From the NCBI GenBank assembly GCA_013538675.1, contig JACAFJ010000009.1:6640-38639 (forward strand): 32,000 bases of DNA. Reading direction: 5' to 3'. Both the position numbers and the translations under genes were made by a program. This document shows positions 3,925-32,000 of this stretch, piece by piece. Position 1 is the stretch's first letter; each line of letters begins with the position of its first letter. This DNA is from Candidatus Nitrosocaldus tengchongensis. Its GTDB lineage: Archaea; Thermoproteota; Nitrososphaeria; Nitrososphaerales; Nitrosocaldaceae. The notes under the pieces were generated by a model. The model had not been told where the DNA came from. It searched no databases and saw only the letters and a program-made list of their open reading frames with translations.

Positions 3925-4638
3925 TCACTTGGATGCTATGAGTATGATAACAGCGCCAAGCATCCTTGATATAAGTTTGACACTACTAAACCGCTCTCTT
4001 AGCATTGCAAGTAACTCTGAGTTCTTGGGCAACCTCTTGTATGTATCGTATATTGCAGCAAACTTTAGCCCAAGTCTTCCAGCAGCAAAGAATGCTAGGA
4101 TGGCAAGTATGAACCTAAGGTATAACGATGCCCCAAGCCTAACCAATGGGGCATCTGGCTTACCTATATCAACTATGACAAGTCTGCCATCATCCTTAAG
4201 CACTCTATGGAACTCTCTTATAGCATGGCTCATGACCAGAGCGTCCCTGAATGAGTACCCGCATACTACTGCATCGAATTTACCATCATCAAAAGGGATG
4301 TACTCAAATATGCCAGATACGAATGATGCCCTATCCTTATCTTTATACTCAGCCATACTCTCACTTGCCAGATGAAGCATCTCTGCTATTGGGTCTAGCA
4401 TAACAACTCTAACGTTTGGGAATATCTTCAAGATACTCTTACTCATATTACCAAATCCAGAGCCAGCATCCAGCACAAGGTAACCGTCTTTGATACCCTC
4501 AACTATGCCTATCATCCTCATCTCTTCTGCCTTGCCCAGAGAGATAACCCTGTTAACCCTATCATATACAGGGATTACTTCCCTGAGCACTCTTATTATA
4601 CTACTCCACTCATCCCTTAACCCCATCTGCCAACTCAC
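3925..4638 (-). CDS. ubiE: UbiE/MenG-type class I SAM-dependent methyltransferase (probable demethylmenaquinone methyltransferase)
   Basis: Has the N-terminal VIPVYDRVNRVISLG pattern typical of UbiE/MenG, SAM motif I (VLDAGSGFGNMS) and a later LKDDGRLVIVD motif. Confidence 0.75.
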   Translation of the reverse strand: MSWQMGLRDEWSSIIRVLREVIPVYDRVNRVISLGKAEEMRMIGIVEGIKDGYLVLDAGSGFGNMSKSILKIFPNVRVVMLDPIAEMLHLASESMAEYKDKDRASFVSGIFEYIPFDDGKFDAVVCGYSFRDALVMSHAIREFHRVLKDDGRLVIVDIGKPDAPLVRLGASLYLRFILAILAFFAAGRLGLKFAAIYDTYKRLPKNSELLAMLRERFSSVKLISRMLGAVIILIASK

Positions 4639-14603: not shown

Positions 14604-15428
14604 CTATACCACACTATCATCATCTTCATCCATTACTCCCCCTTCTTCTCCTCTTCCTCCTCTTCCCTTCCTATCCCTATCCTCATCATCTCTTCTCTCC
14701 CTTCTCTTTGCAAAGTTCTCATCAATACTCTCAGCAAGCCTATCCAATTCATCTAGGTTACCAAACTTGAGATAGGTTAACCTCTCCAATGCTTGTATAA
14801 TATTCTTTGCTGCTCTATACTGTGGTATCCTAGGATCGTCTATCTCACCATAGAGTCCTATACCATGTATACCGTTCATCTTAGCAAAGCCTAGTATGAG
14901 ACCATTGAATCCAGTTATAAGTGATGAACCGTGTGTAGGATACAATCCAACCCTTGCTATACTCTCTGTTAGCATAGGACTTGTTGTGGTTACAAGAACC
15001 CTAGGGTTCTTGCCTACAGTTCCATCTACGAGGAATGCACCAACTGTATACATGAACTGCACTGAGTACATCTTTGCAACATCTATCACATCTTGGCATA
15101 GTATGTATAGGTCACTGCTAGACTCTGGCTGGCCTACAGAACCTCCAAATACTATTATCCTCTCAGCATGTCTATACTCCCACATAACCTGCTCAAACTC
15201 TATGTATCCTCCCTTATCTATAACATATGGAGGGTAATGTGCATGTACAACCCTGAACGGTCTTGTCTTGAGTGTCTTGTTTATAAAGTCTATCACTATA
15301 CTGCCTACATTACCCATATCCTGCATAGCTGCCATCATTATTGGATTTTTACCTGCAAGGTCTGGCTCTTGCAGATTCTCAAAGTGCATAGCATAATTTT
15401 GTTTGTGCCAATAATAACTCTTTCCCAT
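14604..15428 (-). CDS. PAC2-family proteasome assembly chaperone homologue
   Basis: 274 aa. The layout and motifs (NPIMMAAMQDMGNVGSIVIDFI..VVHAHYPPYV..GLILGFAKMNGIHGIGLYGEI) fit the archaeal PAC2/COG1938 family as I remember it. The C-terminal tail is highly charged. Confidence 0.6.
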   Translation of the reverse strand: MGKSYYWHKQNYAMHFENLQEPDLAGKNPIMMAAMQDMGNVGSIVIDFINKTLKTRPFRVVHAHYPPYVIDKGGYIEFEQVMWEYRHAERIIVFGGSVGQPESSSDLYILCQDVIDVAKMYSVQFMYTVGAFLVDGTVGKNPRVLVTTTSPMLTESIARVGLYPTHGSSLITGFNGLILGFAKMNGIHGIGLYGEIDDPRIPQYRAAKNIIQALERLTYLKFGNLDELDRLAESIDENFAKRRERRDDEDRDRKGRGGRGEEGGVMDEDDDSVV

Positions 15429-18486: not shown

Positions 18487-19050
18487 TTATGGTATGCTTC
18501 TGCTGTACAGCTTACCCTCTAGTGCAAGCTTGTACATCTCTGCAACGTATGGGTTGCTTGGTGGTGTCTCCATTCCTAGCTCTACCATCCTAACGTAGAG
18601 CCTAACCACATAGGCTAGGGCACCTATGAATGCTACAACAACACCCATGTTGAATGACCAGTGGTTTGGAACTGCGAATACCTCCTCAACGAACCAGAAG
18701 TGCCACATCTCATTTATACCTATTGTGAACATTGTACCTAGGTAGCCTATGATGGTCATCTTTATACCAGTGTTGACACTGTTGTTTGGACCCCTCATCA
18801 GTGGCACCCTTCTGTCATATATCATTATTGCACCCCAGCCTAATGGTAGGGCTACGAAGTGGGAGTATAGCCACCAGTGTGCTGGTGTGAATGCGCTATC
18901 CCTTATACTGGTCTGATGAAGTGAGCCATCTACGAAGTTATCAACCTCAACACTTGCTGCAACTGAACCCATCACTATGACCATTATCAGTATCTTCTTC
19001 AGCCTCTGCATCTCAACTTCTTTTGGTAGTAGTGCTGGCATCTGAGCCAT
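18487..19050 (-). CDS. amoC: ammonia monooxygenase subunit C (archaeal)
   Basis: 187 aa. The pattern DSAFTPAHWWLYSHFVALPLGWG..GPNNSVNTG..INEMWHFWFVEEVFAVPNHWSFN is the archaeal AmoC pattern. Confidence 0.95.
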   Translation of the reverse strand: MAQMPALLPKEVEMQRLKKILIMVIVMGSVAASVEVDNFVDGSLHQTSIRDSAFTPAHWWLYSHFVALPLGWGAIMIYDRRVPLMRGPNNSVNTGIKMTIIGYLGTMFTIGINEMWHFWFVEEVFAVPNHWSFNMGVVVAFIGALAYVVRLYVRMVELGMETPPSNPYVAEMYKLALEGKLYSRSIP

Positions 19051-19080
19051 ACCGCTTCATCTTCTGCTACCAGAGAGCAG

Positions 19081-19088
19081 TATATTTA
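19081..19088 (-). promoter_or_regulatory. putative amoC TATA box
   Basis: The minus strand reads TAAATATA, 31-38 nt upstream of the amoC ATG (19050). Confidence 0.35.
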
Positions 19089-19326
19089 CCTTATGATAGG
19101 AAATATCAAATGAAATCTGTATATATCCTAAAGCTAACAGGCTTTATCTTAATTAAAACATATTAAAAGAGTCCATATCCTGAATTATTCTGATGTCAAT
19201 ATGATGAATAGAAATGATTAACAACGGAATTGAATATAACATAAACATCATTAGGAGAGTAGATTTATTGTTTATAAGTATGATTAGATATTAATCTATA
19301 TATAAATCAAAAGTAGATCACCAATG

Positions 19327-19339
19327 TAAAAATATATAT
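19327..19339 (+). promoter_or_regulatory. putative amoB TATA box
   Basis: AAAAATATATAT, ending about 24 nt upstream of the amoB ATG (19364). Confidence 0.4.
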
Positions 19340-19363
19340 CTGTGTTAGTACAAGATTCTAATA

Positions 19364-19993
19364 ATGAAGGTAACGCATGTAGCATTGCTGACTGCAGTAG
19401 CGGTAGTACTGGTCTTTGGCTCATTTGCGCCCATGATGAAGGATGCGTTTGCACATGGTGTTCAGGCGCAGTTACAGAGTAGGTTCATAAAGATAGAGGA
19501 TGAGACTTTCTCAACATTCAGAGTTATCACGAAGCAGGAGTATGCAAACAGAACAGGGTTGACACTTGAGCAGGTAGATGCCATGGGCTGCGACCCAAGG
19601 AGACAGGATATACTGATAGTTACTGGAAGGCTTGTAAGCCAAGTCAACAAGGATCTTAGGGCATGGATATCCCTCTTCAACGAGTCAACCAATGCAGGTA
19701 ACAGATGGGAGTTCATATCAAGGGAACCTCCAGGTAATGTATTCGATATACCTGCAGGTGGAGAGGTTCCATACAGGCTATGCCTATCAGCACTTGAGCC
19801 TGGAACATATCATTCACATACACAGTTGAATGTAGCCACAGTTGGACCTGGTCTTGGTCCAGGAGCAACAATAGTAGTAGAGGGAGAACCAACGATGAAG
19901 CCAATGTCAGTAGGCAATGTGATATACCAGAGCATACTGATAGCCATAGGCTTAGCAATAACATTCGCAACAAGACCATGGCAGGTTATATAA
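19364..19993 (+). CDS. amoB: ammonia monooxygenase subunit B (archaeal)
   Basis: 209 aa. A signal peptide is followed by HGVQAQLQSRFIKIED, a cupredoxin-like domain and a C-terminal TM helix. It is divergent from amoC. Confidence 0.95.
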   Translation: MKVTHVALLTAVAVVLVFGSFAPMMKDAFAHGVQAQLQSRFIKIEDETFSTFRVITKQEYANRTGLTLEQVDAMGCDPRRQDILIVTGRLVSQVNKDLRAWISLFNESTNAGNRWEFISREPPGNVFDIPAGGEVPYRLCLSALEPGTYHSHTQLNVATVGPGLGPGATIVVEGEPTMKPMSVGNVIYQSILIAIGLAITFATRPWQVI

Positions 19994-29712: not shown

Positions 29713-29829
29713 GCCGGGGTGCCCTAGCCTGGTAGGGGGCAGGCCTGCTAAATAGCAGGTTATAGATGCTATGCAGCAAGTCTGTGGCCCGTATGGGCCG
29801 CACGGGTTCAAATCCCGTCCCCGGCGCCA
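29713..29829 (+). tRNA. tRNA-Ser(GCU), class II, with a 28-nt intron at the canonical 37/38 position and encoded CCA
   Basis: Hand-folded. Acceptor stem GCCGGGG (29713-19) pairs with CCCCGGC (29819-25). D arm is CCCT/AGCCTGGTA/GGGG. Anticodon stem is CAGGC (29740-44)/GTCTG (29780-84) and the loop is CT-GCT-A.A with anticodon at 29747-49. The intron is about 29751-29778, and its TAGCAGG pairs with the exon CCTGCTA. The long variable arm is GGCCC-GTAT-GGGCC. T arm is ACGGG/TTCAAAT/CCCGT. Discriminator G is followed by CCA. A TATA-like TTTATTTA lies 25 nt upstream. Confidence 0.85.
29751..29778 (+). other. tRNA intron (archaeal splicing-endonuclease type), boundaries +/-1 nt because of flanking A residues
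   Basis: The sequence between anticodon-loop position 37 and the 3' half of the anticodon stem contains TAGCAGG, which is complementary to the anticodon-stem/loop sequence CCTGCTA. Pairing of this kind is expected for a bulge-helix-bulge substrate. Confidence 0.6.
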
Positions 29830-29841
29830 TTATATATTGGT

Positions 29842-31200
29842 ATGGACGTGTATAACATACACAATTACAAGAGGATAACAGAGTACTGGCTTAAGCGTAT
29901 AAAGGAGGCAGAAGAGGAGAGGAAGAGGGAGGAGGAGGAGGAGAAGGAAGGGGAGGAGAGGGGGAAGCAGAAAAGGGAAAGGAAAAGGAAGGATATAGAT
30001 ATGATTATGTATGATCTTGCTTGTAGGTTCATAACTGCATTAAGGTTAGCAGGTGTAGGAGAAGGCAAGGTTAAGGACTATGCTCAGTTCACATATAGGA
30101 TAATGGTGGAGATAATGCATGAAGTAGGGATACATAAAGAGATAGCAGAACTAACAAGGGAGGATATAGATAGGATAGCAGGTGTAATAGTCAAAAAGAA
30201 GGAGGAGGGTCGTTGGAGTCTCTCTACCATAGCAATAGCATTACGAACATTGAAGAGGTTAGTCCATTATGCTAAGCATAAAGAGATAGCAGAAGGAGAG
30301 GGTAACTACTGCAAGGAGGTAGAGCATATACACCCAGATAGGTACAAGAGCAAGGCATTGAAAGAGGATAAGGTAAGAGCAACTGATCTTCTTACAAGAG
30401 AGGAGTTCCTCAGAATGGTAGAGGCAGTAGCAAAGGTAAGTAGATACCCAGCAAGGGATAGAGCATTACTATACGTTATGTATGAGTTTGCTGCTAGACC
30501 TAGTGAGTTATTAAACATGAAGGTAGGTAATCTTGTATTCCATGAAGGATATGCAGAGATAACAACAGAAGGGAAGACTGGTGTTAAGACCCTAACTTTG
30601 GTACTCTCTTACAATGCATTAAGGGAATGGTATGAGCAACACCCATTAAAGGAAGAACCCAATGCGTATTTATGGTATAGTAAGCAGAAGAATAAGCAAG
30701 GTGAGTATAGAGTATCATACGATAGGCTAAGAATATTCTTGAAGAGATTAGCAGAAGTAGCAGGGATAAGGAAGAGGGTATGGCTATATCTGATAAGGCA
30801 TACAGCATTAACGCATGTAGAAAAGGAGTATGGTTCCTCCATTACTGAAATGTATGGGAACTGGAGGAAGGGTTCTCCTATAAGGAATAGGTATATACAC
30901 TTAGCAAATTCAGATCAGAGGGAAGCAGTACTGAAGAGGTATGGGTTGTTGAAGGAAGGAGATAATAGTAGTAATAGTAATAGCATTATTGAACCAAAGC
31001 GTTGCTATCGTTGCAATACCCTTAACGAACCTAATGCTAGGATATGCAAGCATTGTGGTCTCGTTATAGATCCTAGATATGCTATGCAGATCCATAGCGA
31101 GAGAGAGGGAAAGATAAAGGAGTTAGAAGAGAGACTAGCAAGGGTAACAGCAATAGTAGAAGAACTGCTTAGGAGGCAAGAGAGGGGAGATCAGCATTAG
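29842..31200 (+). CDS. tyrosine recombinase / integrase (intact, tRNA-adjacent) with C-terminal zinc ribbon
   Basis: 452 aa. Has an N-terminal E/K-rich tract, a SAM-like core-binding region and a catalytic domain with ARPSEL (Arg I), EGKTGVKT (Lys), YLIRHTALTH (Arg II-His), GNWRKGS and NRYIHL (Tyr). These are followed by CYRCN..x..CKHCG and a coiled-coil tail. It starts 13 bp after the tRNA-Ser CCA. Confidence 0.9.
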   Translation: MDVYNIHNYKRITEYWLKRIKEAEEERKREEEEEKEGEERGKQKRERKRKDIDMIMYDLACRFITALRLAGVGEGKVKDYAQFTYRIMVEIMHEVGIHKEIAELTREDIDRIAGVIVKKKEEGRWSLSTIAIALRTLKRLVHYAKHKEIAEGEGNYCKEVEHIHPDRYKSKALKEDKVRATDLLTREEFLRMVEAVAKVSRYPARDRALLYVMYEFAARPSELLNMKVGNLVFHEGYAEITTEGKTGVKTLTLVLSYNALREWYEQHPLKEEPNAYLWYSKQKNKQGEYRVSYDRLRIFLKRLAEVAGIRKRVWLYLIRHTALTHVEKEYGSSITEMYGNWRKGSPIRNRYIHLANSDQREAVLKRYGLLKEGDNSSNSNSIIEPKRCYRCNTLNEPNARICKHCGLVIDPRYAMQIHSEREGKIKELEERLARVTAIVEELLRRQERGDQH

Positions 31201-31459
31201 TATTAGCAGTAGTAGGAGGAGTAACAGAAGCAGAAGTAGCAGTAGGAGTATTAGCAGTAGCAATAGTAGTAGAGGTAGGAGTAGGTGTATTAGTAGCAGG
31301 AGTAGGTGTATTAGCATTAGTAGCAGAAGTAGTAGGAGGAGTAATAGTAGGAGTACTGGACTTCAACCCCTCTATTATCTCTTTTATCTTTTCGATCTCT
31401 TCCTTTACCATTAAGAGTAGTTCCTTATTACTCTTATCCCTAAGGTCTATCATTATCAT
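31169..31459 (-). CDS. small protein: short coiled-coil N-terminus plus Thr/Pro/Ala/Asn-rich tail, function unknown
   Basis: Shortened version of track ORF 31169..31738, starting at MIMIDLRDKSNKELLLMVKEEIEKIKEIIEGLKSS followed by TPTITPPTTSATNANTPTPATNTPTPTSTT... The minus strand is purine-rich here. The upstream part of the track ORF looks non-protein-like and overlaps a better plus-strand ORF. The 3' end overlaps the integrase stop by 32 nt. Confidence 0.35.
   Translation of the reverse strand: MIMIDLRDKSNKELLLMVKEEIEKIKEIIEGLKSSTPTITPPTTSATNANTPTPATNTPTPTSTTIATANTPTATSASVTPPTTANTNADLPSLAS
31201..31347. repeat. imperfect GTA/GCA/GGA triplet-repeat tract, open in several frames
   Basis: About 145 nt built from GTAGCA/GTAGGA/GTATTA units. 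It reads Thr/Pro/Ala-rich or poly-Leu on the minus strand and Val/Gly/Ala-rich on the plus strand. Confidence 0.8.
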
Positions 31460-31535
31460 ATTATAAAGGAAGGATATAGCTAACAGAGAGTTTGATAATA
31501 GAGACGTATATATGTTAGGGTGTAAATATTCATCC

Positions 31536-31772
31536 ATGAACATGGATGTACCAAACATAAAAGTAAAGAACGGGAGCTCTGGGAGGAAGCCCGTTCTTCC
31601 CTCCTTTAAGGAGGGTAGTGTGCCTCCCATAAGAGGAGTAGAGAAGCCTATAGCAAGCACAAAGAAAGCGAAGCAATTCACCAGAGCGCTACTTTCTAGC
31701 GATCTTGTACGTAAGCAGTACAATGAAGCATATCTCATACTATCACAAAGAAAGAAGGGAGGGAGGAGGTGA
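31536..31772 (+). CDS. small basic protein, function unknown (element-borne)
   Basis: In-frame ATG within track ORF 31512..31772. TATATAT at 31507-31513 lies 23-29 nt upstream of 31536. The plus strand is purine-rich and the product is K/R-rich (..KPIASTKKAKQFTRALL..SQRKKGGRR). An alternative start is GTG 31618, preceded by AAGGAGGG. Confidence 0.3.
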   Translation: MNMDVPNIKVKNGSSGRKPVLPSFKEGSVPPIRGVEKPIASTKKAKQFTRALLSSDLVRKQYNEAYLILSQRKKGGRR

Positions 31773-31790
31773 TAAGCAAAGTAAGCATAC

Positions 31791-32000
31791 TCATTCTTTC
31801 TTCTCCTTACTTACCTTAGGCTGCTTGAAACCTCTCTCTACCAACACTTTATTCACTTCCCTTATAGCAAAGCAGAACCCTACGTGAAGACAATCGTCTC
31901 TCTCACAATACCTGCAGTAGAGGAACTTTCCCTTCGGTACTACTTGAACCTCAACTATTCTGTCTATGAAGTAGTCTGCTATATCTATTATATTATCGTA
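31791..32000 (-). CDS. C-terminal fragment of a protein of unknown function (N-terminus outside the window)
   Basis: Own translation of the minus strand, open from the window edge to the stop at 31791-31793: YDNIIDIADYFIDRIVEVQVVPKGKFLYCRYCERDDCLHVGFCFAIREVNKVLVERGFKQPKVSKEKKE. It has a Cys/His cluster (CxxC..C.H..C). It is absent from the ORF track because it has no start in the window. Confidence 0.4.
   Translation of the reverse strand, partial: YDNIIDIADYFIDRIVEVQVVPKGKFLYCRYCERDDCLHVGFCFAIREVNKVLVERGFKQPKVSKEKKE

Follow-up and report, generated by a model that had tools for sequence, protein, structure and literature searches.

What does it mean when a complete integrase gene begins only a few bases behind a tRNA gene? 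The question is raised by positions 29713 to 32000 of a 32,000-nucleotide stretch of the genome of Candidatus (Ca.) Nitrosocaldus tengchongensis (assembly GCA_013538675.1, contig JACAFJ010000009.1), the whole of which is referred to here as the window. Within it, a tRNA-Ser(GCU) gene is followed by a tyrosine-recombinase gene whose ATG is the 13th base past the CCA of the tRNA, and an initial annotation took this junction for the border of an inserted element. Comparison with related genomes bears out both the junction and the border. The best explanation appears to be that the junction is attL, the left attachment site (att) and left end of an integrated, recently mobile element at tRNA-Ser(GCU), most likely an integrative and conjugative element (ICE) related to NitIsl-E3, or a derivative of such an ICE without conjugation genes, in the Ca. 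Nitrosocaldaceae; we give this explanation a probability of about 0.78. NitIsl-E3 is a 40,625-bp ICE of Ca. Nitrosocaldus islandicus 3F located in tRNA-Ser(TGA) (Krupovic et al. 2019, PMC6563490).

Empty and occupied tRNA-Ser sites

Both halves of the junction are recognized by standard searches. The Rfam family RF00005 matches 29713-29826 (42.1 bits), and this is the sole tRNA found by Rfam in the 32 kb. When introns are allowed, ARAGORN reports a tRNA-Ser(gct) that extends to 29829 and has a 28-nt intron at 29751-29778, after nt 38; the default run missed the gene because of this intron. The recombinase matches the Pfam family Phage_integrase (PF00589) over residues 184-356 (3.2e-17). The DNA downstream of the junction has a slightly lower G + C content (0.39-0.40) than that directly upstream (0.44-0.46).

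Evidence of insertion comes from closely related metagenome-assembled genomes (MAGs). The neighboring isocitrate dehydrogenase protein is unchanged on 23 contigs of Ca. Nitrosocaldus-labelled MAGs, and on most of these 24 nt separate the tRNA from a downstream type IA topoisomerase gene. The topoisomerase-side flank of the tRNA-Ser site carries TGTTAGTATTAATAAGTTG, and TGTTAGTATTAATAAGTTGTATGG precedes the topoisomerase gene itself. Homology between the window and these empty sites, as detected by blastn, ends at 29830, one base past the CCA, with the junction at 29830/29831. Empty tRNA-Ser sites are present in 14 MAG assemblies of the same species (12 compared at each base, the other 2 by the spacing of their genes). 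To the left of the tRNA they share 99.83-100% identity with the window, over as much as 10.7 kb, and one of them (L026) has zero mismatches over 9091 nt. Three proteins of the topoisomerase side (P0170, P0169, and P0172) led to empty sites only. A comparison with relatives had been proposed as a check on the inserted element, and it finds sequence that breaks exactly at the tRNA in the 14 assemblies; the integrase and its neighbors are not core genome in all relatives, being absent at the tRNA-Ser site from these conspecific assemblies.

Two other assemblies are occupied (contigs L007/L012 and L011/L024), such that the same junction is seen in three independent assemblies: those of the window, L007/L012, and L011. 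Between L007/L012 and the window, the host flank is 99.98% and the element 98.7% identical. The relationship between L011 and L012 is of a different kind: their host flanks are 84-87% identical, while the tRNA and the element, compared over the first 3.3 kb of the latter, are 99.97% identical (1 mismatch in 3266 nt). A near-identical element in two diverged hosts, together with empty sites in near-clonal relatives, indicates recent movement, including transfer between species, and this is the only simple reading of these sequences. It is very improbable that the window instead holds an immobilized remnant, a fixed island beside the tRNA with a polymorphism that stems from deletions or from artefacts of assembly or binning: 12 assemblies have empty sites without a single flaw at the tRNA end, nothing is missing from the catalytic set of the intact integrase, the 99.97% identical copy resides in a host that is only 84-87% identical, and the junction recurs in three assemblies. 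This holds even though no right attachment site (attR) was seen, L021 and L032 have related integrases in a state of decay, ICE-2 of N. cavascurensis lies at the same tRNA without an integrase, and the MAGs derive from mixed strains, with contigs that break near the tRNA-Ser site.

Several further observations concern the host and the surroundings of this site. AmoC-type (187 aa) and AmoB-type (209 aa) genes, assigned by exact length match to related loci, are found at 18487-19993 of the window, which identifies the host as an ammonia-oxidizing archaeon. Related contigs carry the label Ca. Nitrosocaldus sp.; among named genomes that share loci, the closest is that of Ca. Nitrosothermus koennekii. 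Approximately 3-6 kb beyond the topoisomerase, many MAG contigs (L001-L020) break in or near a polyprenyl synthase gene, and for the next two genes there are two alternative versions, of 246/213 aa or of 180/215 aa; this region looks like a second strain-variable spot near the tRNA site. On contig L013 (11795-11887; an end of GCA_038880195.1, reached via protein P0046), which stops 93 nt past the topoisomerase gene, the topoisomerase flank adjoins, at a point 11 nt past the CCA position, an unrelated 80-nt sequence (...GGTTTGTTTTTG|ATAAGTTGTATGG), with no piece of tRNA. These 80 nt have no match at any other locus, and the L013 junction may represent a different insertion or deletion at a tRNA-Ser hot spot.

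Attachment site and crossover

Occupied and empty copies of the tRNA differ at a single position, 29752, which is the second nucleotide of the intron. The base is A in the window, L012, and L011, and G in 12 of 12 empty sites, against a density of single-nucleotide polymorphisms (SNPs) in the flanks of 0-0.13%. Since the A allele tracks occupancy, including in the cross-species copy, positions 29752-29830, which comprise at least 79 nt of the 3′ part of the tRNA, most likely arrived with the element. In this respect the initial annotation needs correction, as it had element DNA starting after the tRNA; judged by the SNP, it most likely starts within the tRNA, no later than 29752. A third species (L028) combines identical tRNA exons with an intron that is quite different.

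We infer a crossover 5′ of the intron, between an element site (attP) and a chromosomal site (attB) that are unlike at one base, and infer the length of att in the same way. In the mechanism that we propose, the tyrosine recombinase would act on attP, directly before its own gene, and on the tRNA-Ser(GCU) gene of the chromosome, and join the two. The attP would duplicate 79 nt or more from the 3′ end of the tRNA, a segment that takes in almost the whole intron; strand exchange on the 5′ side of the intron would then rebuild the tRNA so that its 3′ part comes from the element, and would leave the integrase gene whole, 13 nt downstream of the rebuilt tRNA. A more speculative extension, which we consider doubtful, is that att (of at least 79 nt, or ∼105 nt if L019, described below, is attR) spans most of the intron-containing tRNA so that each integration replaces the host intron, and that the fixed spacer could mean that the integrase message is made from the 3′ trailer of the tRNA precursor. 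If true, expression of the integrase would be tied to transcription and processing of the tRNA.

At the right end, every element-bearing contig ends inside the element, and the contigs of L013 and L019/L020 end at or near the tRNA on the topoisomerase side. In L019, from an occupied-site MAG and reached via protein P0167, the topoisomerase flank is preceded by 105 nt of tRNA with the G allele, where the contig ends; L020, also reached via P0167, ends inside the tRNA. L019 could be attR or could come from a co-assembled empty-site strain, both of which give the same sequence. No repeat of the tRNA 3′ end of at least 10 nt occurs in the 10-11 kb downstream of the integrases in L011, L021, L030, and L032. 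A 37-nt pattern for the right flank had 0 matches in the genome contig collection, and a scan of metagenome contigs with CCATTATTAATTGGTATG gave 45 matches, none of which adjoined a tRNA or an integrase; these were dismissed as chance.

The integrase

In an alignment of 19 homologues, the catalytic residues R219, K245, R319/H320 (within Y316xxR319), W341, and Y351 are invariant. The same is true of C388, C391, C402, and C405, which form a zinc ribbon (CxxC...CxxC) that is weakly matched by Pfam at residues 384-409. The protein also has a long terminal helix at its C-terminus and a Glu/Lys-rich low-complexity insert at approximately residues 22-53. The N-terminal sequence MxVYNY..EYWLxRI is common to homologues down to 55% identity, and from this conservation the ATG at 29842 is taken as the true start and the gene as complete. 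With its complete catalytic set the integrase is intact by these sequence measures, and it is predicted to be active. An AlphaFold2 (AF2) model (predicted local distance difference test, pLDDT, 77) has XerA as its best Foldseek match (3.4e-8), followed by IntI4, XerH, and Cre, and the modelled fold is of the two-domain Xer/Cre-like type. Exact-protein look-ups gave no identical record for this 452-aa integrase or for a 189-aa open reading frame (ORF) of the window.

Two other identities were considered for the protein and set aside. The archaeal chromosome-dimer resolvase XerA does not fit the score for NF040815 (57.4 bits, with an NCBIfam equivalog cut-off of 220), nor would a single-copy core gene of this kind be expected to be missing at the tRNA-Ser site in 14 conspecific assemblies. 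The idea of a split gene, as in SSV1, was prompted by a reading frame that is open through the 3′ part of the tRNA and by a 40-nt repeat of the integrase 5′ region in L021. It was rejected on the basis of a complete ORF, a conserved N-terminus, and an empty site without N-terminal sequence; no homologue has a conserved extension in the open frame, and the extension of P0015 into the tRNA is only a run-on of the gene caller. The same features, namely the complete ORF and the shared N-terminus, uphold the original assignment to the type of integrase whose gene stays whole, rather than to the split SSV type.

Within the integrase gene there is a mosaic patch (window 30690-30760, residues ∼283-307), where the window has SKQKNKQGEYRVSYDRLRIF and the L012 copy has SRTKGRVSYGRLRAF. 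Outside the patch the window integrase is 98% identical to the L011/L012 copy. The patch is also found in the paralogous integrases P0003, P0004, and P0009, and this sharing suggests recombination among integrase genes. The N-terminal inserts of the family are highly variable: that in the window (29903-29990) lies between conserved helices and is rich in Glu, Lys, and Arg, and the homologues P0003 and P0006-P0008 have poly-Asn/Ser inserts of up to ∼80 residues in this region.

The integrase family at tRNA genes

The position of the integrase directly behind a tRNA is a habit of its family. Five of the closest homologues with readable surroundings lie directly behind tRNA-Gly(CCC), tRNA-Gly(GCC), tRNA-Val(GAC), tRNA-Val(CAC), and the tRNA-Ser(GCU) of another species. 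At these loci the end of the tRNA is followed by TTATTAATTG(G/A)T and then ATG (ATT in L030), as compared with TTATATATTGGT and ATG in the window, such that the spacer motif is kept behind five different tRNA genes (six loci). More widely, a same-strand tRNA is found at the predicted start in 20 of 80 integrase-family loci from the species genomes of GTDB. The recurrence of a tRNA directly upstream across the family places attP beside the integrase gene, not inside it.

Two of these loci have features of their own. In Ca. Nitrosocaldus sp. SKYG19 (L028, 9627-11257), a 66%-identical integrase occupies the orthologous tRNA-Ser(GCU), next to syntenic host genes that are 81% identical; the intron of the tRNA differs from that of the window in sequence and length, and the contig ends just past the integrase. 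Behind tRNA-Val(GAC) in L021 (4052-15000, GCA_038890015.1), and likewise in L022 and in L023 of Ca. Nitrosothermus koennekii, there is a paralogous integrase that is 76% identical and has a decayed N-terminus. Two proteins of defence type are encoded next, a 1227-aa Eco57I/N6_Mtase and a 1282-aa SNF2-helicase/PLD-nuclease. A stretch of 40 nt from the 5′ region of the integrase recurs without mismatch, as a direct repeat, 10,758 nt farther downstream (4139-4178 and 14897-14936); the tRNA is not repeated.

Cargo and the nature of the element

The expectation that most of the cargo lies outside the window is confirmed by more than 11 kb of additional element DNA in a near-identical copy. The cargo was read from L024, which extends 10.3 kb past the integrase, and from L109, which is 95.6% identical over 6.3 kb and adds 1.6 kb, giving ∼13 kb in total. 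The whole element would exceed 13 kb. In L024 the integrase is followed by genes for proteins of 96 aa (minus strand), 78 aa, 132 aa (minus strand), 229 aa, 368 aa, 191 aa, and 150 aa. After a 670-nt gap come a GmrSD-type nuclease, a 323-aa protein, a 709-aa multi-pass membrane protein, and a nucleotidyltransferase; to the right of the 709-aa gene, L109 has a 93-aa gene and then a ParB_N/MT-A70 fusion. The cargo consists mainly of ORFans, and the 78-, 96-, 132-, 229-, 368-, 191-, 150-, and 323-aa proteins have no match in Pfam, PHROGs, NCBIfam, PADLOC, or PDB sequences.

Profile searches of the downstream ORFs, which had been advised for capsid, replication, or defence genes, had a divided outcome, with defence-type genes found and no capsid gene in the ∼13 kb. 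The GmrSD-type nuclease matches PF03235 (GmrSD_N, 8e-28) and the PADLOC profile HEC-05 (2.7e-42), and the nucleotidyltransferase matches PF01909 (2.2e-19); PADLOC reports HEC-05, PDC-S09, and MTase_II on the cargo. The nuclease, the ParB/MT-A70 methylase, and the nucleotidyltransferase are predicted from these profiles to be defence or anti-defence cargo. It is very unlikely that the element is a provirus with structural genes outside the part that could be read. Most of the cargo consists of ORFans without a Pfam or PHROG match and the right part of the element is unseen, as a provirus would allow, but capsid, portal, terminase, and packaging ATPase were all missing from the ∼13 kb in searches of Pfam and PHROGs, neither the integrase nor the 709-aa protein found relatives in scans of IMG/VR, and the sole large conserved cargo protein is VirB6-like.

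This 709-aa protein is the main link to conjugative elements. It is 58% identical to WP_103287653.1 of Ca. Nitrosocaldus islandicus, which is the VirB6/TrbL protein (arCOG07844) of NitIsl-E3 (PMC6563490 supplement 1). In Foldseek searches with its AF2 model (pLDDT 68), TrwI/VirB6 of R388 provides the only high-probability matches (0.66-1.0, TM 0.34-0.49). The 229-aa protein has an N-terminal Cys/His motif and takes the position of TFIIB in NitIsl-E3. A TFIIB homologue, usually upstream of a ParB-like gene, is a trait of thaumarchaeal ICEs (Krupovic 2019, PMC6563490); in the present element ParB_N is fused to MT-A70 and lies away from the 229-aa gene. The VirB6/TrbL homologue and the matching order of genes at the left end point to a relative of NitIsl-E3, either as a full ICE or as a cryptic element derived from one, and such an element would be expected to excise and, if complete, to transfer by conjugation.

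Several observations weigh against this explanation. There is no repeat of the tRNA 3′ end of at least 10 nt in the 11.6 kb downstream (L011/L024), and attR was not found. Neither VirB4 nor VirD4 is encoded in the ∼13 kb read, the VirB6 matches of the 709-aa protein in Foldseek are weak (E 0.25-1.3) and come from a model of moderate confidence (pLDDT 68), and the TFIIB-like and Zn-ribbon proteins are assigned by position and motif only, as Pfam, PDB sequences, and NCBIfam gave nothing. A precedent is NitVie-E4, which has VirB6 alone and is not an ICE but probably a degraded one (PMC6563490). Finally, an att-like stretch at L011 15640-15675, CCCCATTATATTCCTAGTATGG, resembles the succession of tRNA end, spacer, and ATG in attL and in the att of NitIsl-E3.

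A stretch of this kind could mean that the locus is a composite of a ∼5.7-kb cryptic element (integrase to 150-aa gene) and a separate, older island with the GmrSD, VirB6-like, and methylase genes, and the conjugation-type gene would then be no part of the element that has its border in the window. L109 matches L024 only from 13293 rightwards (95.6%), with a divergent gene to the left; sharing only the right module, it implies that modules recombine. Tandem reuse of tRNA sites by thaumarchaeal elements is also documented (PMC6563490). However, the resemblance at L011 15640-15675 is confined to ∼20 AT-rich bases, with no copy there of the tRNA-Ser 3′ end, and NitIsl-E3 combines the same left-end order and VirB6 in one element. 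A composite is thus an unlikely arrangement, and a single element related to NitIsl-E3 is preferred.

Two non-coding features of the cargo are of separate interest. A 91-nt stem-loop at L011 15566-15656 (L024 13887-13977; 99% conserved in L109) has a folding energy of -40.5 kcal/mol (z = -4.0; none of 200 shuffled sequences folded as well). After it comes CCATTATAT..GTATGG, similar to the attL spacer; at a loose threshold Rfam has nothing credible for the stem-loop, and no tRNA is recognizable in it. At L011 14798-14899, between the genes for the 191-aa and 150-aa proteins, there are overlapping palindromes of 39-50 nt (TAATTAATTACTCACAGA...GTGTCAAAGTTTGA), and this cluster could be a regulatory or replication-origin-like site.

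Small genes downstream of the integrase

The coordinates of the features at the junction and in the part of the element within the window are collected in Table 1. The initial annotation described two small divergent ORFs without homologues. Both are real, being called genes in related copies, and the lack of homologues does not extend to the 96-aa ORF, which has homologues downstream of related integrases in L027 and L028. The exact 78-aa protein was found on just two other contigs, both of which bear the element. The 96-aa protein has a coiled-coil N-terminus and a Thr/Pro/Ala/Asn-rich tail, and it is this low-complexity tail that is encoded on the minus strand of the triplet-repeat tract. 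The tract had been noted previously at 145 nt; its presence is clear, and the length given by Tandem Repeats Finder (TRF) is greater. The Cys/His-rich ORF that was described as truncated at the window edge proves to be the C-terminal part of the 132-aa gene. Its motif, CxxCx4CxHx3C, suggests metal binding, and the gene has the position of that for the Zn-ribbon protein in NitIsl-E3.

Table 1. Features at the tRNA-Ser junction and downstream of it in the window.
Feature	Coordinates	Strand	Basis or remark
tRNA-Ser(GCU), integration target (attL)	29713..29829	+	Rfam RF00005, ARAGORN -i; mature length 89 nt
attP/attB homology block, minimal element-derived 3′ part of tRNA (79 nt)	29752..29830		SNP and end of homology; most likely extent
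Spacer TTATATATTGGT, 12 nt, from tRNA end to integrase ATG	29830..29841	+	Element-borne, conserved in integrase family
Integrase, 452-aa tyrosine recombinase	29842..31200	+	PF00589, alignment, AF2/Foldseek
96-aa gene, convergent with integrase, 32-nt overlap	31169..31459	-	Called gene in L011, L012, L024
Imperfect triplet-repeat tract, ∼158 nt	31198..31355		TRF periods 3, 6, 27; 67-72% matches
78-aa basic ORFan, divergent from 96-aa gene	31536..31772	+	Called gene in related copies
132-aa gene, C-terminal 70 codons, cut by window edge	31791..32000	-	Full gene L024 10256-10654 (-)

Significance

These observations add a population-level case of an element that is now moving within and between species of thermophilic ammonia-oxidizing archaea, and document it by empty sites, occupied sites, and a copy in a second species. 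They also indicate that defence genes travel on such elements in hot-spring populations. The hosts are uncultured or hard to culture and have no genetic tools, and an active integrase with a defined tRNA target could provide a start for such tools. Existing knowledge of how elements of this type work is unchanged.

Comparison with known elements

The initial annotation cited Krupovic et al. 2019 on tRNA-integrated elements of Thaumarchaeota; the study exists and includes an element in tRNA-Ser(GCT) of Nitrosocaldus. Its NitIsl-E3 is the closest parallel to the element in the window. Both target a tRNA-Ser gene, have the integrase directly after the tRNA, and share an att motif, which in NitIsl-E3 (34 bp) consists of the tRNA end, the spacer TTATAT..TGGT, and ATG (PMC6563490). 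NitIsl-E3 starts with integrase, Zn-ribbon (minus strand), TFIIB (plus), hypothetical (plus), and helix-turn-helix regulator (plus) genes, and farther on it has VirB4, VirD4, VirB6, a DNA methylase, a type I restriction-modification system, and a primpol replicase (PMC6563490 supplement 1). The likeness of gene order at the left end was matched by gene size and strand. Further likenesses are the 58% identity between VirB6/TrbL and the 709-aa protein, a DNA methylase near VirB6, and evidence of recent mobility from empty sites. There are also clear differences. The target is tRNA-Ser(UGA) in NitIsl-E3 and tRNA-Ser(GCU) in the window; the VirB6 module of the window element is inverted and flanked by GmrSD and the ParB-MT-A70 fusion; the VirB4, VirD4, and primpol replicase of NitIsl-E3 have no counterparts in the ∼13 kb read; and att measures 34 bp in NitIsl-E3 as compared with a probable length of at least 79 nt, spanning an intron, in the window element.

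A second parallel concerns the site. In both N. cavascurensis and N. islandicus, the ortholog of this tRNA-Ser(GCT) gene harbors ICE-2 (NCAV2-E2/NitIsl-E2), whose 24-bp att (PMC6563490; Abby et al. 2018, PMC5797428) is identical to the 3′ end of the window tRNA. In N. cavascurensis ICE-2 has no integrase and is regarded as immobilized, and its cargo includes topoisomerase IA, metabolic genes, and metal efflux (PMC5797428). The window element, in contrast, has an intact integrase, carries other cargo, and is polymorphic.

In arrangement, the window integrase is like those of the pNOB8 type, which reportedly (She et al. 2002/2004) remain whole after integration, with attP beside the gene and the 3′ part of a tRNA as target, as opposed to the split genes of the SSV1 type. 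This likeness is one of description. Unlike the pNOB8 type, the family of the window integrase has a C-terminal zinc ribbon and a terminal coiled coil, and its nearest structures are XerA, IntI, and Cre. Set beside these systems, the element is a well-supported but ordinary case of a known type of element. Less ordinary are a probable att block that extends across a tRNA intron, the fixed spacer between tRNA and integrase, and the direct evidence of transfer between species among hot-spring ammonia oxidizers.

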